From Minisyncoccota bacterium (GTDB taxonomy: Bacteria; Patescibacteriota; Minisyncoccia; Minisyncoccales; Minisyncoccaceae), in the NCBI GenBank assembly GCA_041657045.1, contig JBBACM010000001.1, forward strand, positions 13,259 through 77,258: a stretch of 64,000 bases of DNA. Reading direction: 5' to 3'. Below are positions 1 through 35,502 of this stretch, piece after piece (the stretch's first letter is position 1; every line of letters begins with the position of its first letter). The position numbers were made by a program, and so were the translations under genes. The notes beneath the pieces were generated by a model. It was not told the origin of the DNA. It was given only the letters and a program-made list of their open reading frames with translations, and did no database searches.

Positions 1-419
1 CAAGCGTTATTGGTATAAGTTCCTGTCTTTTTCTGAACATGACCATCGGATGCGCTGTATAATTTCAAAAATGTATCATAAATTCCCGAACAACTGCTTC
101 CCAACCCTGTCAATCCAGAGCAACAGAGACGATTACTATGCACTGTCGAAGCTGGCAAACCGGCATGCCCCCCCGTGGCATCGTATAATTTTAATAAAGT
201 TGTTCCCGAGGTGCAACTTGCAGAAACAGAGCAAGTTAAAGGTATGGTAGCGATACTTTCTTCTGAAGCTACTGACATATTACTTGCACTAGGCCCCTCT
301 GCCGCAGAAACATTGAAATCGCCACCTCTTTGAAGGATTACAAAAAAGCCGAGAATTAAAATTAAAATCGTAAAAGCTCCCATAATGAACTTTTTATTTT
401 TAAATATTTCTCGGTTCAT
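1..419 (-). CDS. N-terminal part (runs off window) of a secreted/anchored surface protein, paralog of the 583..5520 gene
   Basis: Manual minus-strand translation from ATG at 419: MNREIFKNKKFIMGAFTILILILGFFVILQRGG..., nearly the same signal-anchor as the 1645-aa neighbour. Not in the ORF track because it lacks a stop in the window. Confidence 0.5.
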   Translation of the reverse strand, partial: MNREIFKNKKFIMGAFTILILILGFFVILQRGGDFNVSAAEGPSASNMSVASEESIATIPLTCSVSASCTSGTTLLKLYDATGGHAGLPASTVHSNRLCCSGLTGLGSSCSGIYDTFLKLYSASDGHVQKKTGTYTNNA

Positions 420-486
420 GTTTTGATTAATTGTTTTTAAATTACCGATAAATGTAAGATTTCTTATAAAAAACTGATTCTAATTA

Positions 487-575
487 AAGCCAAAAAAGAG
501 AAAATGTTTTTGAATTTTAAAAATTCTTATCTTTAATAACATTTTCCCTGTTTTTAGCGCCCTTGTCAAGAAAAT
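487..575 (-). promoter_or_regulatory. Conserved promoter plus 5' leader (copy A): -35 TTGACA (564-569), 17-nt spacer, -10 GAAAAT (541-546), dyad TGAATTTTAAAAATTC (511-526)
   Basis: About 90 bp nearly identical to 5585..5665, upstream of the paralogous surface-protein gene. Confidence 0.45.
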
Positions 576-582
576 TGATAGT

Positions 583-3500
583 CTAGAGCGGCGATACCTC
601 TCTCCATTTCGGCAACAAGCTACCAGCAGGGCCAATTATTGCTTCATTCCCACAATAAGGAGAACCTTCAATCTCTAGTCCTACCGTTTTAGGAGCCGTT
701 GATGTGAAGTGAATAAATGGATTTGGAGAGTTCATATCGTCGCCTGGAGCAAAAGAATAATCATCGCCAAGAGTCCCAGGAATTTTCCATATGATAATGT
801 TTCCATTAGTAGAGCATGAAACTGGCGTTCCACCATCATAGCAAACGCTACATTTCCAATCCGTTGAACCAACTACGGCAGGGCCTGTTCCTTTCCAACA
901 AGTAGAATAACAAGTAGCTTCCGAATCACTAATATCTGTTCCGCTACAGAGCTGGATATCGCCATCAACGGAGGTAGCAACAGGGACAACCCTTACTGTC
1001 GAAAAGTGCCTTACGGGCGTTGTAAATGTTGCTGTTGCCCAATCAGATTCGGCACTATTGCTTCTAACTTTAACCCACCAATTATATGTCGTTCCATAAG
1101 CTATTTGATCGTCGCCTGGAGATATTTTTACCCATACCCTACCATACAGCTGCTCGTCAGTTGGTAGATGATCTGTTTCAACCCAACCTGTATTTATTTC
1201 TGCCTCACTAACAAGAGAAGAGGTTCCAATAGCAATCATGTAGTCTGTGATGTAGGCGCCAGGAGTATCGTCCTTGTACGTAAACCATAAATGTAAATTA
1301 CCATCATCTCCATCTAATAAATTTGTATGAGTATCCTCGTCGAAATAATGTTCACAATAGGCATAAGGATCCCATTGTCCGGCCGTATACATAGTTTCTG
1401 CACGAGGCCCTGAAGATGTAGATGATTCTCCTCCTAAAGAAGCAGTGGGCTCACTGGAAACATACTTACGGACAATTACATTATCTATCGTAAGATCTCC
1501 CCCTTGATAATGTGTGAAGCCTGTTTTAAACGTTGATGGAGCTGTATCAACATGATCATAGGTAGTCCAAGTAAGCCCACCATCCGAACTGAATTCGGTC
1601 TTCGTGCCAGCCCCATTCTGATTTATTATCTCTCTAGTATCGTATTGAGTATTGGGATAAATATATCCCGCAAACTGATCTACAACAGCACCGGCCTGAA
1701 AAATTTGAAAACGCCAATCCGTTTTAGCCGCTAGGCCAACCATATCGTAAATAAAGCTACTGCTACCAACTCCTGAGCTTGAATCTTTTACTCCAAGTAT
1801 CGTGTAGTCATAAAAGTTCGTTCCTCTTGCCAATGTTGTTTTATATTTACTTTGAACCATAACTCCACTGGTCGTTCTATCAAATGTAGTATTGGTGTGC
1901 ATTTCCGTACTATCCCACGCCTGATTACCATCGCTAATATTTAATGTTTCATTTTGAGTTATAAAATTATTAGCATCTGTTTTAGACCATTTCGTCGTGT
2001 TAATAATTGTTCCAGAAAAATCATCAAAGAAAAGGAATGTATCATCTCCTTTTGATGCAGGAGGCGCAGAACTATTTCCATAATACATATAAAAAGTAGT
2101 CGCGGGACTAGTGGCAATTGAAGGAATCTTAACCCAGACTTTGGCAGTATCAGGAGTAGCGACAGTATCTATTGACTCGATCCAATAAGGATAGATTGTC
2201 CCGTCTGACTTGGCAAATCTTAAATCGCTAAAATCAGCATTCATTTTCCCTGTAACATAGGGTACATCTATCTTCATGGCGTAATTTGTTAATGATGAAC
2301 CACTAGACACTGTTACCAACTTTTTATAACTCCAACCAGATAGAGAAGGTAGGCCTGAAGAAGCATAGGCCATGCAGCTGGAGGATAATCCCCCATAACT
2401 AGCACAGGTCCAATACCATGGGCCGGCACCAGTAACAGTTGGATTTGTAGAAATATCGGAACAAAGGGCGCTTCCCGAAGGGGCCGAAGCAACGAATGTT
2501 CCGTTTGCAGAACCGCAAATATTGATAGTTGATGCTTCTGCACCAAAACTACCTACAGTTGGTTCGGTTGCAGCATATTTACGCTGATATACCCAATCAA
2601 AATCTGCATTTGTTGTTCCTGAAGTATATGCAAGAACATTCAAAGAAATATGAGTTCCTGCAGGGTTAATAGCCCATGAATTCCAGGTTCCAGATTGACC
2701 AACCCGATAATAAAATGTTGAAGAATAGTCATGTCTCAACTCAAAAGTATACCATGTGCCCAAAGAAAATGTCTGTAAATTTGTCCCCCACGCAACATTT
2801 TCATTTAACGGAGCAATATAAAATGCATTGGAGTGTAATGTAAGTTTCGCACCAATATCATTACCAGTCGTTTTGATACCAACCCGAGCATCACAATCAT
2901 TTGATGTCGCAGTATTGCTTCTAAGCTTAGACCCAGTAATCACGGTCGCATTATTCGTATCTGTTTTTGCCGTAATGGTGTTCCAAGATAAAGGCCCAGA
3001 TATGGAGACAGACATTAAGCTGTTTGCAAATGTTCTAACGCCGGACGATGCAGTGCTGGTCCACTTTGTGGTGTCCAGAGATAATCCATTAAAATCATCG
3101 AAAAAAACAAAAGTGCTATTTCCATCAGATGCAGAAGGCGTAGAACTATTTCCATAATACATATAAATTGTATTTGCACCTGCCGAAAGAGATGTCTTAA
3201 CCCAGACTTTGGCAGTACTGCTTGAAGTATATGACTCAATCCAGTAAGGAAGAAGAGTAGATCCTGTAGAATCAGTGAACCTTATATCATCAAAATCAGG
3301 CTGCATGTCTGAGTCATAAGTAACAGTAATTGGCACTTGATAATCAGTTAATGCTCCGCCTGAACTATTAATCGGAATAGATTTTTTGTATCGTCCTATA
3401 AATGTAGACGTTGAACAGTTGGTCGGTATCGTCTCTCCGACACCGGTACATGTCCAAGTCCAGATACCGGCACCATTAGCAACAGGTCCGGTGACTATAT

Positions 3501-5520
3501 TGCCAGTAGCGCAAAGGCCTGTTGTGGGAGCTGAAGTCGGAAAGTATTGGCCGTTAGAAGAACCGCAAACTCCGGTAGGAACCTCTTCTGCAGAAAAGAT
3601 AGTCGTTGGAACGACCGCAGAATATTTGTGTACAATAATCCAATCCCAATAAGCTTCATAATTATAAAAATAATCATCATCATATCTTTCCCCTAAAGCA
3701 ATGGGCATTGACGTAATTGACCTGTTAATATTTGATACACTACCATAAGACGCCCCCGTAGCATAATTAGCGATAGATAGGTCTACGGCCGAACTGCTTT
3801 TCACGGCAATTTTTGTTAATAAGTCTGTTGCCGCTGGCGAACCCGATTCACCGCCAGGAAGCTCTATCCAATCATTATTAAAATACCAGTTAGACGCGAA
3901 AGGGATAGCTCCAAAACCAACATAATATGATGAATAAAATCCTCCGGACATAAAACCCATATCAGCCATAGTAACATAACGATGTTTTGTTTCTAGAACA
4001 AAGGGCGTTGTGGCGACGCTAAAAGTAGATATTGATTTTAATCTATCTTTAGTGTTTGACCCTTTTAATTCTCCACCATAAAGAACCCATTCTGGAGCAA
4101 CAGCTGTTCCACTAGACTGAATCCATTTAGAGAGACCGTTATTAAAATCGTCAAAAAAGATAAAAGTATTGGCTCCACTTGAACCAGGGCCAGTCCAACC
4201 ATTACCATAATACATATAAATTATAGTCGCGGCGGCATTAGAAATCGTCGGAACCTTAACCCAGACTTTGGCAACGTCTGGATTGGAGACAGTATCTATT
4301 GACTCGATCCAATAAGAGAGAAGGGTTGCTCCGGTAGAATCGGTGAATCTTAAATCATCAAAATCAGTTTGCATGTCTGAATCATAGGTAACATTAATGG
4401 GCACTTGATAATCAGTCAGTGCTGTCCCAGTATTAATTATTGTTATTGCCTTTCTGCGATCCCAAGCCTTGCTGGCTGTGGATAGTTGTTGGGCCCACAT
4501 TACATAAGTAGGCTCAGAGGGAGTAGGACCCGTAGACATAACAAATTTACGAACAGCAACCCAATCAACCGAGATAGCCTGTGCGTGTCCATAAAAAGAT
4601 GCGGGTAATTGAGAAATTGTTGTTGGTAAATTGGTAGTGATAGTAGAAACAACTGTATTGTCAACACTATAAATCGCACTTACAGTAGAGTTTCTACTAA
4701 TATCATAAATATGATATCCAGTGGTCGGAGTTAGTTGAACTTCTGTTTTATTCGCCGGATAAGGATTTCTTGAAAGTGCGCCAAAAGAACCGGCAACAGG
4801 ATAATTAACATAAAACATATCTGTATAATAATTGTCCGAAGTTCTAAATCCCCAACCAGCATAAGATGATGCTGAGGCCACGCTGACTCTTGAACGGAAA
4901 GAATATCCATTTCCAAATGTCGATATCGAACTTAACATTGATGTACTTGGAGTTCCGGTCGTAGGAATAGTTGCTATATAAGGAGAAATATTATTTAATG
5001 TTGCTGCTCCTGTCCATTTTGTTACATCAAAACTTGTCCCGATAAAATCATCAAAAAAATCAAAAGTATCTACTCCGCTTGAAAGCGTGCCTGTGGTAGA
5101 ATTTCCATAAAACATATACAGATAGGTTAAACCTGCAGTGGGTATGCTCGGAACCTTAACCCAAAAAGTGGCAACGTCTGGGTTGGGAGCAGTGTCTATA
5201 GATTCCAACCAATAAGGAAGTAAAGTAATCCCATCTATTGAAGTAAACCTTATATCATCAAAATCGGACTGCATTTCAGATACATAAGGAACTGTGATTT
5301 TAATCTGATAATCGGTTAAATTAACTCCGGTCGGATTAGTAATCTCTATTTGTCTCTTGTAAGTAAAGGTTGGCAGACGCTGCATCAGCCAGCTCTCTCC
5401 TGCTGCAGAAACATCAACGGTGGACTGTCTTTTAAAGATAAAAAAAGCTCCAAGAATTAAAATTAAAACTGATAGAGCTCCTATGATAAACTTTTTGTTC
5501 TTAGGTATTTTTGAGTGCAT
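583..5520 (-). CDS. Giant (1645 aa) secreted, N-terminally anchored surface protein with four DUF2341-like repeats, LamG/ConA-like modules and two Cys-rich modules
   Basis: N-terminal TM/signal anchor. Four repeats of ...LTDYQ(I/V)...DSDMQ.DFDD(I/L)RFT...YW(I/L)ES...AKVWVK(V/I)P...YMYYGN...F(F)FDDF. Two copies of a C-x5-C...W.WTC motif. Confidence 0.6.
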   Translation of the reverse strand: MHSKIPKNKKFIIGALSVLILILGAFFIFKRQSTVDVSAAGESWLMQRLPTFTYKRQIEITNPTGVNLTDYQIKITVPYVSEMQSDFDDIRFTSIDGITLLPYWLESIDTAPNPDVATFWVKVPSIPTAGLTYLYMFYGNSTTGTLSSGVDTFDFFDDFIGTSFDVTKWTGAATLNNISPYIATIPTTGTPSTSMLSSISTFGNGYSFRSRVSVASASSYAGWGFRTSDNYYTDMFYVNYPVAGSFGALSRNPYPANKTEVQLTPTTGYHIYDISRNSTVSAIYSVDNTVVSTITTNLPTTISQLPASFYGHAQAISVDWVAVRKFVMSTGPTPSEPTYVMWAQQLSTASKAWDRRKAITIINTGTALTDYQVPINVTYDSDMQTDFDDLRFTDSTGATLLSYWIESIDTVSNPDVAKVWVKVPTISNAAATIIYMYYGNGWTGPGSSGANTFIFFDDFNNGLSKWIQSSGTAVAPEWVLYGGELKGSNTKDRLKSISTFSVATTPFVLETKHRYVTMADMGFMSGGFYSSYYVGFGAIPFASNWYFNNDWIELPGGESGSPAATDLLTKIAVKSSSAVDLSIANYATGASYGSVSNINRSITSMPIALGERYDDDYFYNYEAYWDWIIVHKYSAVVPTTIFSAEEVPTGVCGSSNGQYFPTSAPTTGLCATGNIVTGPVANGAGIWTWTCTGVGETIPTNCSTSTFIGRYKKSIPINSSGGALTDYQVPITVTYDSDMQPDFDDIRFTDSTGSTLLPYWIESYTSSSTAKVWVKTSLSAGANTIYMYYGNSSTPSASDGNSTFVFFDDFNGLSLDTTKWTSTASSGVRTFANSLMSVSISGPLSWNTITAKTDTNNATVITGSKLRSNTATSNDCDARVGIKTTGNDIGAKLTLHSNAFYIAPLNENVAWGTNLQTFSLGTWYTFELRHDYSSTFYYRVGQSGTWNSWAINPAGTHISLNVLAYTSGTTNADFDWVYQRKYAATEPTVGSFGAEASTINICGSANGTFVASAPSGSALCSDISTNPTVTGAGPWYWTCASYGGLSSSCMAYASSGLPSLSGWSYKKLVTVSSGSSLTNYAMKIDVPYVTGKMNADFSDLRFAKSDGTIYPYWIESIDTVATPDTAKVWVKIPSIATSPATTFYMYYGNSSAPPASKGDDTFLFFDDFSGTIINTTKWSKTDANNFITQNETLNISDGNQAWDSTEMHTNTTFDRTTSGVMVQSKYKTTLARGTNFYDYTILGVKDSSSGVGSSSFIYDMVGLAAKTDWRFQIFQAGAVVDQFAGYIYPNTQYDTREIINQNGAGTKTEFSSDGGLTWTTYDHVDTAPSTFKTGFTHYQGGDLTIDNVIVRKYVSSEPTASLGGESSTSSGPRAETMYTAGQWDPYAYCEHYFDEDTHTNLLDGDDGNLHLWFTYKDDTPGAYITDYMIAIGTSSLVSEAEINTGWVETDHLPTDEQLYGRVWVKISPGDDQIAYGTTYNWWVKVRSNSAESDWATATFTTPVRHFSTVRVVPVATSVDGDIQLCSGTDISDSEATCYSTCWKGTGPAVVGSTDWKCSVCYDGGTPVSCSTNGNIIIWKIPGTLGDDYSFAPGDDMNSPNPFIHFTSTAPKTVGLEIEGSPYCGNEAIIGPAGSLLPKWREVSPL

Positions 5521-5561
5521 ATTTTAATTAATATTGAGCTTATAAATTTTTATCCAAAAAT

Positions 5562-5579
5562 TTCGGAATTAATTCCGAA
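5562..5579. repeat. 18-bp perfect palindrome TTCGGAATTAATTCCGAA in the leader of the giant surface-protein gene
   Basis: Read directly from the sequence. Confidence 0.5.
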
Positions 5580-5584
5580 TTAAA

Positions 5585-5665
5585 AAAAGGGAAATGTTTT
5601 TGAATTTTTAAAATTCATGTTTGTTAATAACATTTTCCCCTTTTTCTATTTCCTTGTCAAGAGAA
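5585..5665 (-). promoter_or_regulatory. Conserved promoter plus 5' leader (copy B): -35 TTGACA (5655-5660), 17-nt spacer, -10 GAAAAT (5632-5637), dyad TGAATTTTTAAAATTCA (5601-5617)
   Basis: Duplicate of the 487..575 region. Confidence 0.45.
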
Positions 5666-6265
5666 TTATTTTTTAGAAAGGATGACTTCGTCCACGACTC
5701 CGTATTCTTTGGCCTCTTCAGCTGTTAAATAGAAATCCCTGTCGGTATCTTTGGCAATTTTAGCCAAAGGCTGGCCCGTATGCTTTGACAAAATCTTGTT
5801 TACACTTTCCTTTATTCTTAATATCTGTTTAGCGGTAATTTCTATTTCCGAGGCCTGTCCCCTTACCCCGCCCATAACCTGATGGAGAAGGATTTCTGCA
5901 TTAGGCAAAGCATATCTCTTCCCCTTAGCTCCGGCAGCAAGAAGCATGGCGCCCATTGAAGCTGACATTCCGATTGAAACAGTAGAAACGTCTGGCTTTA
6001 TATACTGCATTGTGTCGTAGATAGCCAATCCCGCGGTCACTGAACCTCCAGGACTATTGATATATAATTGAATATCTTTCTTCGGATCTTTTGAAGTCAA
6101 AAAAAGCATCTGGGCCACAATAGTATTAGCCAAATGGTCGTCAATAACTCCGGCCAAAAAAATAATTCTGTCCTTTAAAAGACGGGAATAAATGTCGTAT
6201 GCCCTCTCCCCGGCTTGTGTTTTTTCGATTACAGTTGGAATTAACATACCTTTATATATTAGCAT
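5666..6265 (-). CDS. clpP: ATP-dependent Clp protease proteolytic subunit. The true start is probably the internal Met (MLIPTV..., about 6247), which would remove the overlap with tig.
   Basis: Strong ClpP family similarity ([24 protein letters not shown]) and the classic tig-clpP order. Confidence 0.9.
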
Positions 6266-7506
6266 CCGAATAATTGGAATATTTTTTCTCTTTTCAGCTC
6301 GTCTTCGATGTGCACTTTCGCATGCTCCATGTCTATTCCCTTCCTTGCTTCTTCCTTATCCGGATATTGATTAATTATTTCTTCTATCTTCTCTTCTATT
6401 TCTTTTTCTTCTACTTGTATTTTCTCATCTTTTACTATTTGGTTCAAGACCAAGAACCCTTTTACTTTTTCTCCGGCAATCTTCTCAAATTCTTTCTTAA
6501 CGTCTTCCTCTGTCTTTTTGATTTGCGATAAGTATTGGTCGTAAGCCATGCCTAATTCGCTTTGAACTCTTGATTTAACGTTTTCAATCATCATTTCAAC
6601 CTCTCTTTCAATTAAAATTTGAGGGACTTCGAACTTGACTTTTTCCAGTATTTTATTTATAGCTTGCTCTCTCTGTTTTTGCTTTTCAGCAATTTCTTTT
6701 TCTTGTTTTATCCCCTTCTTAATATCTTCTTTTAGTGCTGCTATATTCCCAAAATGCCCTAAAGATTTGGCCCACTCGTCGTTTATCTCTGGCAATTCCA
6801 TTTTTTTTACCGAATCAACTTTAACGCGAAGAGTTAATTTCTCTTTTTTTTCTTGAGGATTAACGGTTTCAAATTCCTTTTCTTCTCCCCTCTTCATCCC
6901 CGTAATCACGTCTTCAAGCCCTTCGATATAGTGGCCCTTACCCAAAACAATTCTGTCTTTTTTTACTGCATCATCTTTAATACTCAAGCAACTAAAAGAA
7001 AATTCCACCAAGTCGGTCTTTTCCGCTCCGCTTTCCTTTTCAGAAAACTTAGCCCTTGATTGCTGCAGCCAATTTAAAGTGTCCTCAACTTCTTTATCCT
7101 CCACTTTAACCTCTTCCCTCTTTATACCCTTGCCGATACTTTGCAAATCGGGCAGCTTAATCTCAGGAATAATTTCAAATTCCGCATTAAAAATAAAAGG
7201 ATTCCCCTTGGCAACTTTCACTATTTCTACCTGAGGAGGAGACACAACTTCAATCTTTGTTTCTTTAATAATTTTAATCCAATTATCTCTAATCGCGTGC
7301 TCTGACGCTTCGGATAAAACAGTGGCCGGATTAAGTTTTTCTTCAACTAAATTTTCCGGAGCTTTTCCTTTTCTAAAGCCGGGCAGTTCAACATCTTTAA
7401 CGATTTCTCTCAAGGCCTCAGCGTAATAATTATCAAATTCTTCAGGAGTTACTTCAACTTCCGCCTTTCTTTTAATTGATGATATTTCTTTAATTTCGTA
7501 TTTCAT
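6259..7506 (-). CDS. tig: Trigger factor
   Basis: Trigger-factor-like N-terminal ribosome-binding region, Glu/Lys-rich, directly upstream of clpP. Confidence 0.8.
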
Positions 7507-7517
7507 CTCTTTAAGTA

Positions 7518-8768
7518 TTATTCTTCTGATTCTTCATCAATATGAAGCTCTTCCTCTTCTTTTTTAACCTCATTCATCTGGTCTTCGCTTTTGACGTCTA
7601 TTTTCCAACCGGTTAGTTTAGCAGCTAATCTCACATTTTGACCGTCTTTTCCAATAGCCAAAGATAATTGGTCTTTAGGGACAATAACGATAGCCGTATT
7701 TCTGGGCTGGACTAAAACATCAATAATTTTGGCCGGAGATAAAGCGCTGGCAATAAATTTGGCTGTATCTTCATGGTATTCAATAATATCAATCTTTTCC
7801 CCGCCTAGTTCTGACATAACGGCGGCAACTCTTACTCCCCTCTGGCCAACCATGGCACCGATTGGATCAACTCCTTCGGCCGAAGAAGAAACGGCTATCT
7901 TTGTTCTTGAACCAGCCTCCCTGGCAATTGCTCTAATTTCAACTTGAGCGCCGGATATTTCTGGAACTTCTAGTTCAAATAACTTAGAAATCAATTTCGG
8001 GTAACTTCTTGATAGTAAAATAATAGGTCCTTTTGGAGTAGTATCAACTCTTAAAACATATAGCCTCAATCTCTGCCCTTCTTTATAGAACTCCCCCCTT
8101 ATCTGCTCTTCTTTAGGAAGGATTCCTAGAGATTTACCGATATCAAAATAAATATTCAATCCTTCGATTCTTTGAACTATTCCTGAAACAATTTCACCCT
8201 CCTTTGATTTGTATTCGGCCAAAACATTTTCTTTCTCCGCTTCCCTTATTTTCTGTAAAACAACCTGTTTTGCAGTTTGAGCTGCAATTCTGCCAAAATC
8301 ATCCCTGCTTTCAAGAGGAATAACCAATTCTTCGCCGGCTTTTAATTTCTTGTCTTCTTTAATAGCCTCTTCTATTAATATATGTTTTTCTGGATTGTAC
8401 CTTACCCTTCTCTCTGCATTCTCCCCTTCTTTTTCTATTTCTTCGGTATTTAATTCCGCTTCAGTCGGCCTATAACTATCCTTAAGTTTAATCTTTATTT
8501 CTTCTGTTGGTTCTGCTCCCCCTTCAACTTCTTCTGTCTTTTCGGGGATATAAACCATGGTGTCATCAACAACAGCTCTTACTCTCCAAAAATCAACCTT
8601 TCCGGTCTTGGGGTTTATCTTGGCCTTAATTACCTGCCCCTTCTTGCCATATTCTTTTTTATACGCCGAAGCCAAGGCATGCTCTACCGTATCTAAAACT
8701 TTCTCCGGTGATAGTCCTTTCTCTTCGGATATTTGCGTCATCGCTGATAAAAATGATTGAAAGTCCAT
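7518..8768 (-). CDS. nusA: Transcription termination/antitermination factor NusA
   Basis: N-terminal NusA domain plus S1 and KH regions, with an acidic C-terminus. Confidence 0.85.
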   Translation of the reverse strand: MDFQSFLSAMTQISEEKGLSPEKVLDTVEHALASAYKKEYGKKGQVIKAKINPKTGKVDFWRVRAVVDDTMVYIPEKTEEVEGGAEPTEEIKIKLKDSYRPTEAELNTEEIEKEGENAERRVRYNPEKHILIEEAIKEDKKLKAGEELVIPLESRDDFGRIAAQTAKQVVLQKIREAEKENVLAEYKSKEGEIVSGIVQRIEGLNIYFDIGKSLGILPKEEQIRGEFYKEGQRLRLYVLRVDTTPKGPIILLSRSYPKLISKLFELEVPEISGAQVEIRAIAREAGSRTKIAVSSSAEGVDPIGAMVGQRGVRVAAVMSELGGEKIDIIEYHEDTAKFIASALSPAKIIDVLVQPRNTAIVIVPKDQLSLAIGKDGQNVRLAAKLTGWKIDVKSEDQMNEVKKEEEELHIDEESEE

Positions 8769-8794
8769 ATTTTTAAATTATTATTTAAATTGGT

Positions 8795-8877
8795 AATAAA
8801 AAGGTCGGAACCATCCGACCAATCAAAAATCTACTCTATTCTTAATTACATTTTATCAGAACAAAAGGAGTTGTCAA
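8795..8877 (-). promoter_or_regulatory. nusA promoter and leader attenuator on the minus strand: -35 TTGACA (8872-8877), 16-nt spacer, -10 TAAAAT (8850-8855). Leader hairpin GGTCGGATGGTTCCGACC (8803-8820) followed by a U-run (8795-8802), about 26 nt before the nusA ATG.
   Basis: Read from the sequence. This is an intrinsic-terminator-like structure inside a 5' leader. Confidence 0.5.
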
Positions 8878-8905
8878 GTCTTAAATTTTAATATATTATT
8901 AAATC
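8871..8905 (+). promoter_or_regulatory. Putative cca promoter: -35 TTGTCA (8871-8876), 17-nt spacer, -10 TATTAT (8894-8899). The predicted transcription start is at or next to the ATG, so the mRNA would be leaderless.
   Basis: The hexamers overlap the divergent nusA -35 (near-palindrome CTTGACAAG). Confidence 0.35.
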
Positions 8906-10399
8906 ATGAAAATGGACTTGAAAAAAATTCCTGAAAATGTCTTGTTTTGTATTGAAGCTTTGCAAAAAAATGGATTTGAGGCATATATTGTCGGCGGGTG
9001 CACCAGAGATTTTCTAAGAGGCGTATCCCCGGCTGACTGGGATGTTGCCACCAATGCCATTCCCGAACAAACTCAGAAAATCTTTAAAGATCTAAAAATC
9101 AAGACTTTTTACGAAAATGACTTCGGCACAGTCGGGGTAGCTTTCCCCAAAAAAAATGACGAATTTGAAGTTATCGAGATAACTACATATAGAAACGAAG
9201 CGACTTACACAGACAGTCGCCATCCAGATAAGGTTAGCTGGTCTAAAACCATTGAAGAAGACCTAAAAAGAAGGGATTTTACAGTCAATTCTATAGCAAT
9301 ATCCCTAAAAAATGGCTCCGAAATGGAGATTATCGATATGTTTAACGGAAAAAACGACCTCGAAAAGCATATTCTTAGGGCTGTAGGCATTCCGAGCGAT
9401 AGATTCCAAGAAGACGCCTTGAGAATGATGAGAGCGGTTAGACTAAAGACTACTTTAGGTGATGATTGGACAATTGAAGAAAAAACCAAGCAAGCAATCA
9501 AAGATAACGCTCAATTATTGAACAAGATATCCCAAGAAAGGATTAGAGATGAGCTAATTAAGATAATCGATAGTGAGAATGCGGCTGCTGGAATTGAATC
9601 ATTAAGAAATAAAGGATTATTAACATATATAATGCCGGAATTGGAGGAAGGATACGAAGTCGCCCAAAACAAGCATCATATCTATGATTGCTACAAGCAT
9701 AATCTCGAATGCCTCAATTTCGCAAGTCATAAAGCTTATAAATTCGAGGTTCGCATGGCTGCCCTACTACATGATATAGGAAAACCGAAGACTAAGCGGG
9801 GAGAAGGTAATGACTCTACCTTTTATAACCATGAGATTATCGGAGCTCAAATGGCCGAGAAAATACTCAATCGCTTAAGGTTTCCCAAAAAAGATGTAGA
9901 AAAGATCGTTAATTTGGTAAGATACCATCTATTTTACTACAATGTAGATGAAGTAGGAGAAGCTTCGGTCCGAAGATTGGTTAGAAATGTAGGAGCTGAA
10001 AATATGGAAGATTTGCTGGAGTTAAGAATGGCTGATAGAATCGGGTCCGGATGCCCAAAAGCAGAACCATATAAGCTAAGGCACTTCAAATATATGATTG
10101 AAAAGGTGTCAAAAGACCCTATTTCCGTTAAAATGTTAAAGATTAACGGAGAAGAAGTAATGAAAACACTGAATATCCAGCCGTCCCCAAAGGTAGGCAT
10201 GATATTAGATATATTATTTGAAGATGTGCTAAAAGAACCTAAAAATAACGATAAAGCGTACTTAAGCAAGAGGTTATCGGAACTAGGAAGCTTAAATGAA
10301 GCTGAATTAAAGAATTTAGCTGAAAAAGCTAAGGAAGAAAGGAATAAAGTTATTATTAAGGAAGATGAGATGACTAAAGAAAAATACTGGGTAACATAG
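8906..10399 (+). CDS. cca: CCA-adding tRNA nucleotidyltransferase (Pol-beta-like head domain plus HD domain)
   Basis: GGCTRD...DWD nucleotidyltransferase motif and HD motif (LLHDIGKP). Located immediately before CCA-less tRNAs. Confidence 0.8.
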   Translation: MKMDLKKIPENVLFCIEALQKNGFEAYIVGGCTRDFLRGVSPADWDVATNAIPEQTQKIFKDLKIKTFYENDFGTVGVAFPKKNDEFEVIEITTYRNEATYTDSRHPDKVSWSKTIEEDLKRRDFTVNSIAISLKNGSEMEIIDMFNGKNDLEKHILRAVGIPSDRFQEDALRMMRAVRLKTTLGDDWTIEEKTKQAIKDNAQLLNKISQERIRDELIKIIDSENAAAGIESLRNKGLLTYIMPELEEGYEVAQNKHHIYDCYKHNLECLNFASHKAYKFEVRMAALLHDIGKPKTKRGEGNDSTFYNHEIIGAQMAEKILNRLRFPKKDVEKIVNLVRYHLFYYNVDEVGEASVRRLVRNVGAENMEDLLELRMADRIGSGCPKAEPYKLRHFKYMIEKVSKDPISVKMLKINGEEVMKTLNIQPSPKVGMILDILFEDVLKEPKNNDKAYLSKRLSELGSLNEAELKNLAEKAKEERNKVIIKEDEMTKEKYWVT

Positions 10400-10415
10400 T
10401 GTTTCACGTGAAACA
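10400..10415. repeat. Palindrome TGTTTCACGTGAAACA, copy 1 (directly after the cca stop)
   Basis: Perfect 16-bp palindrome. Confidence 0.9.
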
Positions 10416-10425
10416 CATCTTCAGA

Positions 10426-10441
10426 TGTTTCACGTGAAACA
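10426..10441. repeat. Palindrome TGTTTCACGTGAAACA, copy 2, 6 nt upstream of tRNA-Ala
   Basis: Perfect 16-bp palindrome. Confidence 0.9.
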
Positions 10442-10708: not shown

Positions 10709-10724
10709 TGTTTCACGTGAAACA
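10709..10724. repeat. Palindrome TGTTTCACGTGAAACA, copy 3, 5 nt upstream of tRNA-Val
   Basis: Perfect 16-bp palindrome. Confidence 0.9.
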
Positions 10725-10926: not shown

Positions 10927-10942
10927 TGTTTCACGTGAAACA
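10927..10942. repeat. Palindrome TGTTTCACGTGAAACA, copy 4, 5 nt upstream of tRNA-Pro
   Basis: Perfect 16-bp palindrome. Confidence 0.9.
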
Positions 10943-12983: not shown

Positions 12984-14768
12984 ATGGAACAAATATCACA
13001 AAACGAACTTAAAAAAATGCTTCTTTTCTCTTATGAAAGGATAGAAAGAGATAAGGAGCAGGTAAATAAAATAAATGTTTTCCCCGTACCGGACCAGGAC
13101 ACTGGGAATAATCTGGCCGCAACACTGAAGGGAATAAAAGAAGCAATTGAAAATAAAGAATTTGATTCAATCGAAGAACTAAGCAACAGCGCCTTAGACG
13201 GAGCACTGACTGCCGCTCAGGGCAACACTGGAATAATCTATACCGGATTTTTAGCCGGATTTTTTCCTGTAATTGCCAAAGAATCAACTGTTGATGCCAA
13301 AAAATTAGGAGAGGCTCTTACAAAAGGGTACGAAAGAGCCAGAGATTCTATCCAAAATCCCAAAGAGGGAACAATGCTTGATGTTATTGAGGCTTTTGCT
13401 TTAGGGGTCAATGAAAAAGCCAAAGAAGAAAAAGATATTGTTAAAATATTCTATTACGCTTTAGAAAAGGCCAACGCCGCACTATTAGATACCCCGAATA
13501 AAATGGAACTGCTTAAAAAGGCGGGCGTGGTTGATGCTGGAGGATTAGGATTTTTAATGATTATCGAAACATATTTGGATACTTTAAAAGAACAGTCAGA
13601 ACCATTTGTCATCAAGTCATTTGAAAAAGAAGAAATTAACAGGCCAAAAAGATTTGTCCAAATATTATCTAATAGATATGAGGTGGTTTCCTTACTTGAA
13701 GACGGAGACTATTCGGAAAAACAGATTAAAGAAAAACTTCATCATTTGGGCAACTGCCTTGATGTTATCCAAGTAGGAGAAAGGACGAAAATACACATTC
13801 ACACCGACGATCCATACGAAGTAAGGGACATTATTAAAAAGATGGGGAAAATTGAAGACTTGAGAATAGAAGATATGGCCAAAGAAGTAACGGGAGAAAA
13901 ATCGGTTGAAAATGTTTCTGTAGGAATTGTTGTCGATGAAAGAGCTGGCCTCTCGGCTAAAATAGTGGCTCACTACGGAATAGAGGTAATACCCTTAAAA
14001 ATATCCTGGCCGGAAGGGGAAAGTATTATCGGAGAAAATATATGCCAAAGAATTAAAGAGGCTAAAAAACAGGGAATAGTTTCTCAGCCCAAAATAGAAC
14101 CGATTTCGCCTGAATTCTTTATGGAATCATTTAAGAAACAGTTGGAAAATTTTGAAGATATTTTATGCATAATTTCTTCTTCTAGGCTCTCTAAAAACTA
14201 CGAAGCCGCAACCAAGGGAAGGGGAATGCTCAATTATGTCGAACGAGAACACGTCTTTGTAATTGATTCAAGAAACATCAGTGCCGGACAATCTCTTTTA
14301 ACTCTTGAAGCTTTAGAAATGATAACCGAACAAAGAAAAATAAGGGAAGTGCTAAAAAAACTGGATACCGCCATTATTAAAACCAACCTCTATTGCATCG
14401 TAGAAAAATCTGACTGGTGGAATAAAGAAAAAGCAAAACCTTTCTGGTTTAATAAAAAACAAGAAAAACGATATGCTTTAGGAGAAATGAAACACGGGAA
14501 AATTATACCCACCGAAACAATTAAAACAACCGATTTCGCCTCTGCATTGTTTAATAAAATAGAAAAAGAATCGAGGAAGGATATAAAGGAGGGGAAAAAA
14601 TTGAGAGCGGTCATCGTCCACGGAGATAACTTAGAACAAGCCGAAGAATTAAAACAAAAGCTTAAAACAATTAAAAAAACAGACATTTCTTTTGTAAATA
14701 TTACCGATCCGATTACAAGCATTAACGCTTGTCCACAAAGCATACTTGTCGGCTGGATAATCAAGTAG
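12984..14768 (+). CDS. fakA: Fatty acid kinase FakA (DAK2/DhaL-domain protein of the YloV family)
   Basis: N-terminal DhaL/DAK2 signature (PVPDQDTGNNLAATL) and a DegV-like C-terminal half, followed by two DegV (FakB) genes and PlsY paralogs. Confidence 0.7.
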   Translation: MEQISQNELKKMLLFSYERIERDKEQVNKINVFPVPDQDTGNNLAATLKGIKEAIENKEFDSIEELSNSALDGALTAAQGNTGIIYTGFLAGFFPVIAKESTVDAKKLGEALTKGYERARDSIQNPKEGTMLDVIEAFALGVNEKAKEEKDIVKIFYYALEKANAALLDTPNKMELLKKAGVVDAGGLGFLMIIETYLDTLKEQSEPFVIKSFEKEEINRPKRFVQILSNRYEVVSLLEDGDYSEKQIKEKLHHLGNCLDVIQVGERTKIHIHTDDPYEVRDIIKKMGKIEDLRIEDMAKEVTGEKSVENVSVGIVVDERAGLSAKIVAHYGIEVIPLKISWPEGESIIGENICQRIKEAKKQGIVSQPKIEPISPEFFMESFKKQLENFEDILCIISSSRLSKNYEAATKGRGMLNYVEREHVFVIDSRNISAGQSLLTLEALEMITEQRKIREVLKKLDTAIIKTNLYCIVEKSDWWNKEKAKPFWFNKKQEKRYALGEMKHGKIIPTETIKTTDFASALFNKIEKESRKDIKEGKKLRAVIVHGDNLEQAEELKQKLKTIKKTDISFVNITDPITSINACPQSILVGWIIK

Positions 14769-14860
14769 TATAATATTAAATATAATAATTAATCCTTATT
14801 CACAAAGCATACTTGTCGGCTGGATAATCAAGTAGTATAATATTAAATATAATAATTAAT
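14734..14860 (+). repeat. Tandem direct duplication (2 x ~60 nt, period 67) covering the last 12 codons and stop of fakA plus the downstream AT-rich spacer
   Basis: CACAAAGCATACTTGTCGGCTGGATAATCAAGTAGTATAATATTAAATATAATAATTAAT occurs twice. Confidence 0.9.
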
Positions 14861-14880: not shown

Positions 14881-15828
14881 ATGTCTTCTATTCTCAAAAA
14901 AGCTTTTACGCTAATTGAGTTGCTAGTCGTAATCGCCATCATCGGTATTCTCTCTGGTCTAATCATAGTCGGAATGAATGGAATGACTAGACAGGCAAGT
15001 ATTGCTAAATCCCAGGTATTCAACAACTCACTAAGAAACTCATTGATGAATGATATGGCAGCAGATATTCCTTTAGACGGAAGCGCCGAAGACATCTGGA
15101 ATCACAATACCGGAACTGGCGTAGGAGGTACTTTTTTAACTCAAGCAAATGGTAATTGTGTTCAAAATACCTGCTATAGTTTCAACGGAGGAGTTGGCGG
15201 TGTCGCAACTACTGATTATGTTTGGCTAGCTGACAATGACAAATACGCCCTCACAAATCAAATGACCGCCATGATATGGGTAAAAGGAAACGCGCCAGCA
15301 ACTACAGACAGAGTCGCTTTCGGTCACTGGGATGCCTCCGGAGCAACAACAGTAAGAGGGGAATGGAAAATTATGTCGGCGATAACTACTGGTGCCCTTA
15401 GGGTAATCGTATCTAATGACGGAGCGGAATCAACTGCTGCTAATTATAAAAACTATGTTACTTCAAGCGCAACCCCCTTTGATGGAAATTGGCACTTAGT
15501 CGGATTCACTTTTAATGCTGGGACCCTAACTTTATATGTCGACGGAGTATCAGCTTTAGTCACCATGACAAACGATGGAGCAAGCGCCACAAGCATATAC
15601 GCTTCAACTTCCCACCTTACTTTAGGCGCCAGCTTAAACGCTAACGCCTTAGTTACTACAACTACTTTTGCCGGACTTTTAGACAGCGCCAGATTCTATG
15701 ACGCACCGATTCCGACATCTCAGATTAAAGAACTGTACTACGCTGGCTTAACTAACCTGTTCGCAAAAGGACAAATAACTGCACAAGAATATTCTGAAAG
15801 AATAAGCTCTGTAGGAATAAACAATTAA
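14881..15828 (+). CDS. Type IV pilin-like protein (prepilin-type N-terminal cleavage/methylation helix) with a large LamG/ConA-like globular domain
   Basis: N-terminus KKA|FTLIELLVVIAIIGIL with Glu at +5, followed by a Gly/Thr/Asn-rich beta domain. Confidence 0.65.
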   Translation: MSSILKKAFTLIELLVVIAIIGILSGLIIVGMNGMTRQASIAKSQVFNNSLRNSLMNDMAADIPLDGSAEDIWNHNTGTGVGGTFLTQANGNCVQNTCYSFNGGVGGVATTDYVWLADNDKYALTNQMTAMIWVKGNAPATTDRVAFGHWDASGATTVRGEWKIMSAITTGALRVIVSNDGAESTAANYKNYVTSSATPFDGNWHLVGFTFNAGTLTLYVDGVSALVTMTNDGASATSIYASTSHLTLGASLNANALVTTTTFAGLLDSARFYDAPIPTSQIKELYYAGLTNLFAKGQITAQEYSERISSVGINN

Positions 15829-22004: not shown

Positions 22005-23567
22005 ATGGAAGAACTTCTTTTAGACAAAGAACAAATTAGGACAATGAAAAAAGACATGCGGGAAGCCGAGGGGGTCATGGTTTATCCGGCAGAAAAAGAA
22101 CAAACAATTAACTTGTCTTTAGATATCGGTGACTCTATTGAAAAAAGCAGCCCCAATCTTGACATTAAAAAATCTAAGGCAGAAAAAAATAATCAGAAAC
22201 AAGAAAAGCTGCCACCAGATAATGAACTTATGATTATTAAAGATAAGGTTAATCTTGCAATCGAAAAATCGCCAAAAAATATTGACCCTGCCGTCGAGCA
22301 AGAAAAATTAAAAGCCGAAAATCTCGCCCGCGAACTGGCTCTTTTAAGTAACGAAAGTAAAGACATTATTAAAGAACAAGTCTTACAAGAAGGGTCAGGA
22401 AAATCTCCTATAATAGAAAAAATTGCTACTGAAGAAACTTATCAAGAGCCTGCTCCAAAGCCTGATTTAATCATTCCCGAACCTGCCCCTGAGGTAATCG
22501 AACCAAAAGAACCTCTCGTGGAAGAGCCTGCTCCAAAACCTGATTTAATCATTCCCGAACCTGCCCCTGAGGTAATCGAACCTAAAAAACCCCAAGAAGA
22601 ACTGCCTAGTGCATTAGAATTAGGGCTTGAAGATCCAGAAGAAAAAGAAATCCCGATGGCTAAAGATCTAGAGCTGGAAGAAAAAACCGAAAAACCAGCT
22701 ATTGAAAAAGAAGTGGAAGTAGTTGACGAAAATGAAGCTAAGTTGGAAAGGATAGCCGAACAGAGCCTTGAACTTGAAGAAAAGATGAGAAAAATAAAGG
22801 ATGAAAACGCTCCCTTCGAAAAAAGAAAAAAAGAAATAGAAGAAGAAATAAGTAATATTAAGAAAAAGCTTGATTTAGTCCTCGAAAGAAAAATAAAAAT
22901 AGACGAAATCAAAAAGACTATTGAAGAAAAAGAGGCTTTGGCTAAAACTCCTGAAGAAAAAAGGGCTATTGAAAAAGAAAGGTGGAGAACTGAAGACGAC
23001 AGGAATTCTATCGAAAAAGAAAAGGATGAAAAAGAAGACGAAATAAAATCATTAAGACTCCAGCTAAGAGAGTGCGATTTGAACGCAGAAAAAATAACAG
23101 CTGCCGAAAAAGAAATAGCTCAAGACCTTGAGATACTAAAAAGAGATAGAGATAAAATAATCCTCGGACAAACTAAACAGGATTTAGAAAAAAGACTCAA
23201 GCCTCTTGAAGATGAAATAGAAAATATAAAAAGGGGGATGTTCGAGAACACAAAAATGAAAGACAAGTTAGACAAGACCCTAAATGATGTGCAGCTTAAA
23301 GAAAAATCAACAGAAGAAGAAATAAAATTGCTTGAGAAAAGGCAAAATGAAACCAAAGATGAAGTAATTTTACGCGACATTGAAACCAGAAGAAGAAACA
23401 TAGAAGAAAACAGGAGACAAATGGAAAAAGAAAGGTGGGATATCGAAGATAGAACGGCAGACTTGGAAGAAAAAAGAAAAATAATAAAGAAAAATTACCA
23501 AGAAGTAGCCAGCCAGGCAAGACAAATAAAAGCCGACCTCGTAGAAATAGAAGAAAAACTCAAATAA
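22005..23567 (+). CDS. Glu/Lys-rich coiled-coil protein with a tandemly repeated Pro-rich segment (EPAPKPDLIIPEPAPEVIEPK, 2 copies)
   Basis: 59-nt units at 22446-22504 and 22524-22582 with a 78-nt period. The rest is predicted coiled coil. Confidence 0.5.
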   Translation: MEELLLDKEQIRTMKKDMREAEGVMVYPAEKEQTINLSLDIGDSIEKSSPNLDIKKSKAEKNNQKQEKLPPDNELMIIKDKVNLAIEKSPKNIDPAVEQEKLKAENLARELALLSNESKDIIKEQVLQEGSGKSPIIEKIATEETYQEPAPKPDLIIPEPAPEVIEPKEPLVEEPAPKPDLIIPEPAPEVIEPKKPQEELPSALELGLEDPEEKEIPMAKDLELEEKTEKPAIEKEVEVVDENEAKLERIAEQSLELEEKMRKIKDENAPFEKRKKEIEEEISNIKKKLDLVLERKIKIDEIKKTIEEKEALAKTPEEKRAIEKERWRTEDDRNSIEKEKDEKEDEIKSLRLQLRECDLNAEKITAAEKEIAQDLEILKRDRDKIILGQTKQDLEKRLKPLEDEIENIKRGMFENTKMKDKLDKTLNDVQLKEKSTEEEIKLLEKRQNETKDEVILRDIETRRRNIEENRRQMEKERWDIEDRTADLEEKRKIIKKNYQEVASQARQIKADLVEIEEKLK

Positions 23568-35331: not shown

Positions 35332-35502
35332 CTTTCCTTTTCTGTTTTAAAGTTTCACATTACATAATCGTAATATCCCTTGGCTTAGCCAAAGAACACT
35401 ATTATTATGTACTATATTAACACTTTTGTCAAGCTACCACGCATATCTTAATAGCGCACCCATTGAATCTCAAAAAATATATGGTAAAATACTTATATAC
35501 AT

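Follow-up and report, generated by a model that had tools for sequence, protein, structure and literature searches.

Introduction

The lacO1-type repressor operators are palindromes that lie downstream of the transcription start site, and the Correia elements of Neisseria are intergenic palindromes that carry promoters and give rise, in read-through RNA, to hairpins that are cleaved by RNase III. Here we describe a block of DNA that shares features with both, as well as with the intrinsic terminator and the σ70-type promoter (TTGACA, 17 bp, TATAAT), and that lies upstream of each of two tandem surface-protein genes, gene 1 and gene 2, in an uncultured member of the Paceibacteria (candidate phyla radiation, CPR). 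Both genes are read from the minus strand of a 64,000-nucleotide (nt) stretch of contig JBBACM010000001.1 (positions 13,259 to 77,258; hereafter the window), and the gene order on the contig is nusA–tig–clpP–gene 1–gene 2–rny–HU. To our knowledge, almost nothing has been established experimentally about transcription signals in the Patescibacteria or CPR, and a literature search on overlapping terminator-promoters and on transcription start sites of Patescibacteria found nothing relevant.

The promoter within the block is ordinary. What is unusual is that it is fused with a conserved sense-strand hairpin, a variant of known parts that is restricted to this locus and to its counterparts in relatives. 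Like a canonical σ70-type promoter, it has a perfect -35 hexamer and a 17-nt spacer, and its position and spacing are conserved in relatives; unlike one, it has a -10 hexamer, GAAAAT, that matches the consensus at 4/6 positions (A2 and T6 among them), and this hexamer together with the A-rich spacer doubles as an arm of an inverted repeat. That repeat resembles an intrinsic terminator in having an A-tract, a stem and a U6-7 tract, in a core energy that is within range and in its position right after a stop codon, but differs from one in its mostly A-U stem, its 17-27-nt interior with a second hairpin, its pairing past the U-tract and the presence of a promoter in its 5′ arm. As in Correia-type elements, two genes that are read in one direction have between them a long, imperfect inverted repeat, with promoter hexamers inside and a stem of at least 20 bp, enough for a double-strand-specific RNase; unlike those elements, the block is neither dispersed nor mobile, occurs in two copies only, both with members of one gene family at a single locus, and has no visible terminal target duplications. 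Finally, as with lacO1-type operators, a perfect palindrome lies at about +9 to +23 and is common to two co-located paralogous genes, but here the dyad lacks an identified cognate regulator, a regulon and half-site conservation, and its variation is of an RNA type (U·G).

Results

Genes 1 and 2 share a control block that carries a promoter

Upstream of each gene, a first-pass annotation of the window had described about 90 bp of nearly identical DNA consisting of TTGACA, a 17-nt spacer, GAAAAT, a dyad and a conserved leader. The hexamers, the spacer and the 7-1-7 dyad (GAATTTTNAAAATTC, at 5602-5616 and 512-526) are present exactly as claimed (Table 1). The repeat is also real, comprising an 85-nt block (492-576 versus 5583-5667, repeat family D9, 73% identical when compared without gaps), but "nearly identical" overstates the resemblance: in a gapped alignment the 80-column core of the block is 80% identical (64/80), and the leader outside the block is only 40% identical. 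In particular, identity is modular. The -35 block is 94% identical between the two genes, the segment made up of the A-tract, the -10 element and GTTATTAA 91%, the inner dyad 93% (14/15) and AAAAACATTT 100%, such that the inner dyad and AAAAACATTT together agree at 24/25 positions; a 6-nt stretch of the promoter spacer agrees at 0/6 positions and a linker is 43% identical. The similarity between the paralogues begins ~8 nt upstream of the -35 element, and the block does not abut the start codons, as 62 nt separate it from the ATG in gene 1 and 73 nt in gene 2. For the 17-nt form of the dyad, TGAATTTTNAAAATTCA, 0.00 chance matches are expected in the window. Because of this modular identity and the zero chance expectation of the extended dyad, the block is more than AT-rich, low-complexity DNA, as the first-pass annotation had maintained.

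Table 1. Features of the locus and of related loci. Positions refer to the window unless preceded by a locus number; strand is that of the feature; dG, predicted folding energy.
Feature	Position	Strand	Details
clpP	5666..6265	-	last gene of nusA–tig–clpP; Pfam CLP_protease in the contig annotation
-35 TTGACA, gene 1	5655..5660	-	5 nt past the clpP stop codon
-10 GAAAAT, gene 1	5632..5637	-	17-nt spacer; predicted start ~5624-5626
Long hairpin, gene 1 copy	5577..5652	-	dG -17.5 kcal/mol (antisense -15.0), z -3.74, 0/200 shuffles as stable
Inner dyad TGAATTTT-A-AAAATTCA (the "operator" of the first-pass annotation)	5601..5617	-	~+9 to +25 from the predicted start
Upstream open reading frame (uORF)	5580..5618	-	12 codons (MNFKNSKTFPFF, then stop), in the gene 1 block, read from sequence
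Second small hairpin, TTCGGAATTAATTCCGAA then ATTTTT	5562..5579	-	gene 1 leader, from a terminator-like scan
Gene 1	583..5520	-	open reading frame, 1645 aa, secreted surface protein
-35 TTGACA, gene 2	564..569	-	13 nt past the gene 1 stop codon
-10 GAAAAT, gene 2	541..546	-	17-nt spacer; predicted start ~533-535
Long hairpin, gene 2 copy	486..558	-	dG -20.6 kcal/mol (antisense -12.5), z -5.29
Gene 2	1..419	-	5′ part, continues past the left window end; full gene on the same contig (L001), L001:15102-16505, 467 aa
C-terminal domain alleles	583-1380 (-); L001:15690-16505; L005:14170-14965; L018:1-822		
Hairpin fold, L005			dG -21.6 kcal/mol, z -5.2
Hairpin fold, L018			dG -21.5 kcal/mol, z -5.9
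Hairpin fold, L020			dG -18.7 kcal/mol, z -5.0
Hairpin fold, L019			dG -10.3 kcal/mol, z -4.3
Hairpin fold, L041			dG -15.3 kcal/mol, z -4.05
Slot, window genome			1645 aa + 467 aa
Slot, L005			1654 aa only
Slot, L020			461 aa only
Slot, L041/42			223 aa + 1307 aa (LamG/DUF2341) + 367 aa + at least 966 aa
Slot, L043			703 aa (Gly_rich_2) + 127 aa + 367 aa (Peptidase_S74)
Slot, L045			977 aa + 130 aa + 387 aa

At both copies, TTGACA-17-GAAAAT scores 10/12 against the σ70-type consensus. Related junctions were fetched by way of homologues of gene 2 and of ClpP (loci L018, L019, L020/21, L041/42, L043, L044 and L045), and every one of them has TTGAC(A/T)-16/17-GA(A/T)AAT directly before the gene that comes first in the slot, by which we mean the interval between clpP and rny. 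In six related junctions other than that of the window the pattern follows the stop codon of clpP. In all, it recurs right after clpP, or before a homologous gene, at eight junctions from at least six lineages whose surroundings diverge, and the hexamers and their spacing are the sole invariant columns in an alignment of eight junction sequences. As a reading of sequence, the presence in the block of a housekeeping σ70-type promoter that drives each surface gene is well supported, and the locus offers a clearly conserved promoter, TTGACA-17-GAnAAT, for the Patescibacteria/CPR. The co-regulation of the two genes that was originally suggested is plausible insofar as a shared promoter would place them under common transcriptional control, but the repressor control and phase variation that were suggested with it find no support (see below). 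Other strong promoter-like sites of the window, with which the promoter of the block agrees, have the form TTGACA-16/17-TAAAAT(G) and lie at nusA (8877), 25303 and 60230. Even by a lenient definition, 9/57 genes of the window have a Shine-Dalgarno-like motif; because the genome is essentially free of such motifs, their absence before genes 1 and 2 is normal here. (In many of the 57 genes a TATAAT-like hexamer precedes the ATG by 10-15 nt, an indication that their mRNAs have very short leaders or none.)

Locus L005 has an orthologue of gene 1 (67% identical in amino acid sequence) and a block that is 92% identical to that of the window. We rejected this conservation as a sign of constraint, as the housekeeping genes of L005 are 90-93% identical anyway. 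Because those genes are as similar as the block, constraint can be read only from the comparison of paralogues and from more distant relatives. Orthologous blocks cluster together and are closer to each other than are paralogous blocks, and the duplication of the gene "head" is therefore older than the split of three genomes with an average nucleotide identity (ANI) of ~91%. The two copies of the block are products of an old duplication of such a head, comprising the promoter, the hairpin and the signal peptide.

A predicted sense-strand hairpin includes the -10 element

When folded from the promoter spacer to just beyond the T-run, with z scores taken against dinucleotide shuffles, both copies of the block are predicted to form a long hairpin. 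In the gene 1 copy, the spacer A-tract and GGGGAAAATGTT, the -10 element included, make up the 5′ arm, and AACATTTCCC, T7 and AATTC the 3′ arm (inverted repeat 5582-5601/5626-5645), with the inner dyad at the apex. The gene 2 copy has GCTAAAAACAGGGAAAATGTT as its 5′ arm and AACATTTTCTCTTTTTTGGC as its 3′ arm (inverted repeat 492-514/532-554), with the dyad GAATTTT-T-AAAATTC (512-526) at its apex. More generally, the 3′ arm consists of AACATTTyCC, a run of T6-7 and 3-5 bases more. The inner dyad is thus the tip of a hairpin of ~75 nt, and by itself accounts for just -1.8 to -2.7 kcal/mol (-2.7 in the gene 1 copy). Hairpins are also predicted at L005, L018, L020, L019 and L041, of which the last three differ in primary sequence from the four close copies.

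Several observations bear on how this structure is maintained. In 7/7 copies the sense strand folds more stably than the antisense strand, by 0.9-9.1 kcal/mol, and each copy has 1-4 G·U pairs. RNAalifold, applied to the four close copies, gave 33 pairs; three basal pairs are changed on both sides, and several further pairs shift between G-C and G·U through a change on one side. The spacer stretch that is 0/6 identical between the paralogues is still complementary to the bases beyond the T-run. Moreover, the sole change in the dyad of L018, A to G, breaks the DNA palindrome and keeps a U·G pair in RNA. As a modelled structure the hairpin is well supported, and the sense bias, the compensatory changes and the retention of the U·G pair argue for selection on pairing within the sense strand as a single strand, unlike what is expected of a DNA palindrome that is read by a protein.

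These observations are among those that make an operator, which the first-pass annotation had proposed, unlikely. According to that proposal the 7-1-7 palindrome (~+9 to +23), perhaps together with the outer arms, would bind a dimeric repressor that co-regulates both genes. The palindrome is perfect and occupies the classical operator position, overlapping the start region; it is 14/15 identical between paralogues whose remaining leader has diverged to the extent described above; and in L020 a different inverted repeat extends across the -10 element and the predicted start. However, the sense-strand folding bias, the G·U-type variation and the L018 substitution fit RNA pairing rather than DNA symmetry, and covariation of the outermost arms between paralogues of one genome is no requirement for binding by a single sequence-specific protein. 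The half-site differs in L020, L019 and L041, which keep the promoter, and no promoter-proximal hairpin was seen in L043-L045. No regulator gene was identified nearby. A search of the 64-kb window for other copies of the dyad found none, and none were added by 414 kb of sequence (the window and 22 loci), in which a covariance model of the block recovered the known copies only, plus a weak match at the homologous L020 junction. The pattern AAAATGTTATTAA-N4-9-GAATTTTNAAAATTC had 0 matches in 185,579 species genomes. In metagenomes, GAAAATGTT-N9-18-GAATTTTNAAAATTC occurred at 11 loci, of which only L017, an orthologue of the L005 type, is homologous, the other ten being chance matches in unrelated contexts; this metagenome collection is incomplete, in that contig Ga0172380_10007896 carries the pattern and was not returned by the scan. 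The genome and metagenome scans thus gave the orthologous site only. A search of positions 1-9000 with the Rfam 15 covariance models gave no match at E <= 1. Nothing in the window, the 414 kb of related loci or the four assemblies pointed to a regulon under a repressor or to phase variation.

The inverted repeat might instead act as DNA. A near-continuous, AT-rich palindrome of 70-75 bp that includes the -10 element could be extruded as a cruciform under negative supercoiling, which would bury the -10 element and make the promoter sensitive to supercoiling, or, in a variant of this idea, could serve as a recombination or inversion site for phase variation. We consider either form highly improbable: stability is biased toward the sense strand, the G·U pairs are A·C mismatches on the other strand, and 17-27 nt separate the outer arms. 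As for the phase variation raised by the first-pass annotation, four independent assemblies of the species do not differ from the window over 221 nt around either block, homopolymers are 6-7 nt in length, and there was no inverted variant among the assemblies and no recombinase gene in the annotated neighbourhood.

We likewise think it unlikely that function is confined to the hexamers and that everything else the copies share, the inverted repeat included, was left behind by duplication or gene conversion in AT-rich DNA. Inverted repeats arise easily in AT-rich sequence, and in genomes that are ~91% identical in their housekeeping genes the identity of orthologous blocks carries no weight on its own. 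However, the paralogue modules outside the hexamers are 91-100% identical, compared with 40% for the leader and 51% (amino acids) for the C-terminal domain; the clustering of orthologous blocks speaks against recent gene conversion; dinucleotide shuffles never reached the observed folding energy; and analogous hairpins of different sequence occur in two other lineages.

A role in the mRNA that starts at the promoter seems to us quite unlikely. Here the conserved part downstream of the -10 element would act as a stabilizing 5′ hairpin, or as a leader-peptide uORF, of an abundantly expressed mRNA for a surface protein. The inner hairpin does lie near the predicted 5′ end, a strong sense-specific hairpin is also present at the predicted 5′ end of a Band-7 transcript (promoter at 35432..35404), and the gene 1 block contains a 12-codon uORF. 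However, the inner hairpin has little stability when taken alone, leaders folded from the predicted start are no more stable than shuffles (z -0.84 and +0.66), and the pairing of the -10 element and spacer with the downstream arm would be left unexplained. The uORF is itself an unlikely functional leader peptide, since its ATG is missing from both gene 2 copies. Its first 17 nt correspond to the true start of the first slot gene in L041 (MNFKKLRIFF..), and it is probably a relic of the start of a lost gene of the 223-aa type. Alignment indicated that the second small hairpin of the gene 1 leader is not kept in the gene 2 copy or in L005.

We considered, and discarded, a downstream inverted copy of the -10 element as a general feature of promoters in this genome: among 54 promoter-like sites, the best run had a mean of 5.4 nt downstream versus 5.2 in the upstream control, and the inverted copy stands out only at the surface-slot promoters and at one Band-7 promoter. 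The latter is a promoter-like site of a Band-7 (SPFH) gene; in this region (35356-35435, minus strand) TTGACA-17-CATAAT is followed by a strongly sense-specific hairpin (-26 versus -11 kcal/mol for the antisense strand) that has a 14-bp inner stem at the predicted mRNA 5′ end and an outer, perfect 8-bp repeat (TACATAAT/ATTATGTA) that spans the -10 element. Because the intergenic region is divergent, this hairpin is not the terminator of an upstream gene.

The block may insulate each surface gene

We tentatively favour, while giving it a little less than an even chance, the reading that the block is composite transcription punctuation, in which a hairpin for termination or processing has a promoter embedded in it and insulates each surface gene. 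Because the presence of both arms requires a start upstream of the -10 element, any RNA that forms the hairpin must be read-through RNA from clpP or gene 1. Such RNA, which would enter gene 1 from clpP and gene 2 from gene 1, would contain both arms, fold into the stem and U-tract, and be terminated or cleaved there. RNA born at the promoter, in contrast, would start ~7 nt beyond the -10 element and would escape, because the 5′ arm is absent from it; without that arm it would form no stem and would run on into the gene. Each surface gene would in this way be shielded from its neighbour and transcribed from its own copy of the promoter.

Spacing and energetics are compatible with such a role. 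The -35 element of gene 1 follows the stop codon of clpP after 5 nt, and that of gene 2 follows the stop codon of gene 1 after 13 nt, so that no other terminator fits, and since no separate terminator lies between the clpP stop codon and the -35 element of gene 1, clpP is the presumed source of read-through. The stem that leads to the U-tract (GGGGAAAAUGUU...AACAUUUCCC followed by U7 for gene 1; AGGGAAAAUGUU...AACAUUUUCUC followed by U6 for gene 2) has a dG of -8.5 to -11.7 kcal/mol, as against -6.9 to -10.5 kcal/mol for the canonical terminators of these genomes. Hairpin and canonical terminator appear, moreover, to replace each other: in L043, L044 and L045 the interval from clpP to the -35 element contains a canonical GC-rich terminator, and none of the three has a hairpin that engulfs the -10 element (z +1.2, -0.6 and +1.6, respectively), and 6/6 junctions that lack a canonical terminator have the hairpin (window genes 1 and 2, L005, L018, L041 and L020). 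A normal terminator follows the last slot gene in the window genome and in L005. Inside clpP, TGGACG-18-AATAAT is a candidate upstream promoter that would transcribe the whole hairpin for gene 1 and for L020; we rejected it as a general source of hairpin RNA, as it has no counterpart in the gene 2 copies or in L041.

A number of points weigh against insulation. The hairpin has a 17-27-nt interior with a nested hairpin and a mostly A-U stem, and so falls short of a compact GC-rich stem; a consensus terminator scan did not call it. Both the start site and the termination or cleavage step are ones that we infer. The covariation comes from just four sequences, which amount to two close pairs, and the sample of junctions is small. 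Because the compensatory pairs include bases 3′ of the U-tract, they would be absent from terminated RNA, and a processing site (for example for RNase III) fits them better than does a terminator. L019 has upstream, by eye, a terminator-like GC-rich inverted repeat with a T-run in addition to a weaker hairpin, and in L041 the stem incorporates the U-run and its 3′ arm belongs to the coding sequence. Finally, a protein-binding site would also explain the 24/25 conservation of the inner dyad and AAAAACATTT.

The insulating reading can be generalized to a self-insulating promoter, in which the -10 element and spacer are built into the arm of an RNA hairpin such that upstream transcripts are terminated or cleaved and promoter-born transcripts are immune. 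In tiny genomes such as these, with 5-13 nt from stop codon to -35 element, such an arrangement would replace the usual pair of terminator and promoter, and it would have been kept by selection at the entry of the clpP–rny island in at least three lineages of Paceibacteria, with different sequences; we regard this as possible but doubtful. The locus is in any case a testable instance of how adjacent units may be separated in a very compact genome, by a hairpin that shares bases with a promoter. Should insulation prove to be wrong, the locus would reduce to two paralogous surface-protein genes with an ordinary promoter in duplicate.

Products of genes 1 and 2

Giant DUF2341 proteins of Patescibacteria have been mentioned as putative adhesins and likely host-interaction factors (PMC11809585). 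Gene 1 encodes a protein that is like these (MJ1470-like) surface proteins in its four DUF2341 domains, its signal peptide and its large size, and unlike them in that the gene sits in the hypervariable clpP–rny slot, is paired with a short paralogue made up of the head and the C-terminal domain, and specifies a C-terminal domain of ~270 aa that belongs to no Pfam family. In particular, the translation has a signal peptide that ends ..VSAA|GE, four DUF2341-containing modules of ~300-350 aa each, and a C-terminal domain with the last residues LLPKWREVSPL; the protein is 100% identical to one from a metagenome-assembled genome of Candidatus Paceibacterota, and the DNA repeats D1-D3 are internal to the gene. 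Pfam DUF2341 (PF10102) matches four stretches of the protein (E 2e-96, 317 bits versus a gathering cut-off of 23.4).

The product of gene 2 has a signal peptide homologous to that of gene 1, a unique Cys-rich middle and a C-terminal domain that ends LLPRWREISPF; a Cys-rich segment of ~155 aa stands where gene 1 has its four DUF2341 modules. No Pfam family was found for the full-length 467-aa product or for its 139-aa part within the window, and orthologues are 84%, 43% and 41% identical. What the two genes have in common is the control block, the signal peptide with the first 40 aa, and the C-terminal domain of ~270 aa, and nothing else. In BLASTP comparisons the C-terminal ~270 aa are 51% identical (E 4e-76) and the first 40 aa 58% identical (E 3e-10), and a 105-nt repeat of the N-terminal coding DNA (D6) is 75% identical, all of which bears out the paralogous N-termini noted in the first-pass annotation. 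Its two Cys-rich modules in the 1645-aa protein are also readable in the translation, each with four Cys. Only gene 1 is giant, however, of the two genes so described, and the assignment of both products to DUF2341 surface proteins holds for gene 1 but not for gene 2. Nor did we find the LamG repeats: the gene 1 protein matched no LamG family in Pfam at E <= 0.01. Homologues of gene 1, for example P0004 and P0009, do bear Laminin_G_3 (PF13385), and given these a divergent LamG-like fold in the gene 1 protein is possible.

The clpP–rny slot and its C-terminal domain

Comparison of sequences from related genomes indicates that the clpP–rny slot is a hypervariable surface-protein island (Table 1). 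Even at ~91% ANI, strains differ completely in the set of secreted proteins (DUF2341, Gly-rich or Cys-rich) that they carry there, and these proteins are candidates for a part in attaching to the host, or in varying a phage receptor, in these episymbionts. At the DNA level gene 1 and its L005 orthologue share 73% identity, compared with ~91% for the flanking genes, and in the proteins the last ~400 aa are 34-53% identical versus 64-83% upstream. The C-terminal domains of gene 1, gene 2, L005 and L018 share 46-52% mutual identity in genomes that are ~91% identical elsewhere, which suggests that the domain is under strong diversification or subject to allele exchange. Recombination of the domain as the origin of the L005 arrangement was rejected, as the L005 domain is equally far (46-49%) from gene 1 and gene 2.

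An AF2 model of the C-terminal domain (mean pLDDT 69.6) has an FnIII-like sandwich and a poorly predicted Cys-rich part, and structure matches were to generic FnIII-like beta-sandwiches only (best E 2.5e-4, TM ~0.3). The domain, with the end LPxW(R/K)E(V/I)SP(F/L), is widespread in Paceibacteria, often in tandem arrays. The cultured, archaeon-parasitizing Minisyncoccus archaeiphilus (PMX.108 chromosome, L032) has a gene for a 2211-aa protein whose C-terminal domain is of this family, next to another gene that ends in the motif; because Minisyncoccus carries it, the domain could be studied experimentally in culture. This observation concerns L032 together with L037 (Microsyncoccus archaeolyticus). 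In one related lineage, an MNT-HepT (nucleotidyltransferase/HepT-like) toxin-antitoxin pair lies between tig and clpP (L041:6203-7032, L042:6167-6996).

Other sites in the window

Upstream of the nusA–tig–clpP genes, a promoter-like site (8803-8877, minus strand; TTGACA-16-TAAAAT, hexamers at 8877..8850) is followed by a leader hairpin, GGTCGGATGGTTCCGACC, and TTTTTA. The hairpin is kept in L005, L020, L041, L043-L045, L027 and L030, and resembles an attenuator in the nusA operon leader. Four exact copies of a 14-bp palindrome, GTTTCACGTGAAAC, are found on the plus strand (10401-10414, 10427-10440, 10710-10723 and 10928-10941; 0.02 expected) just upstream of the genes for tRNA-Ala (10448), tRNA-Val (10730) and tRNA-Pro (10948), and could represent a regulatory or processing site of the tRNA cluster. 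At 14714-14847 (plus strand), a tandemly duplicated 67-nt unit (90% identical) that holds TAGTATAAT lies just upstream of the gene at 14881-15828, which encodes a pilin-like N_methyl/Laminin_G_3 protein according to the contig annotation; the duplication may be that of a promoter. At 22444-22599 (plus strand), coding sequence is repeated in tandem in units of 78 nt (90% identical) within a 520-aa open reading frame (22005-23567) that has no Pfam match and is rich in Glu, Lys and Pro.

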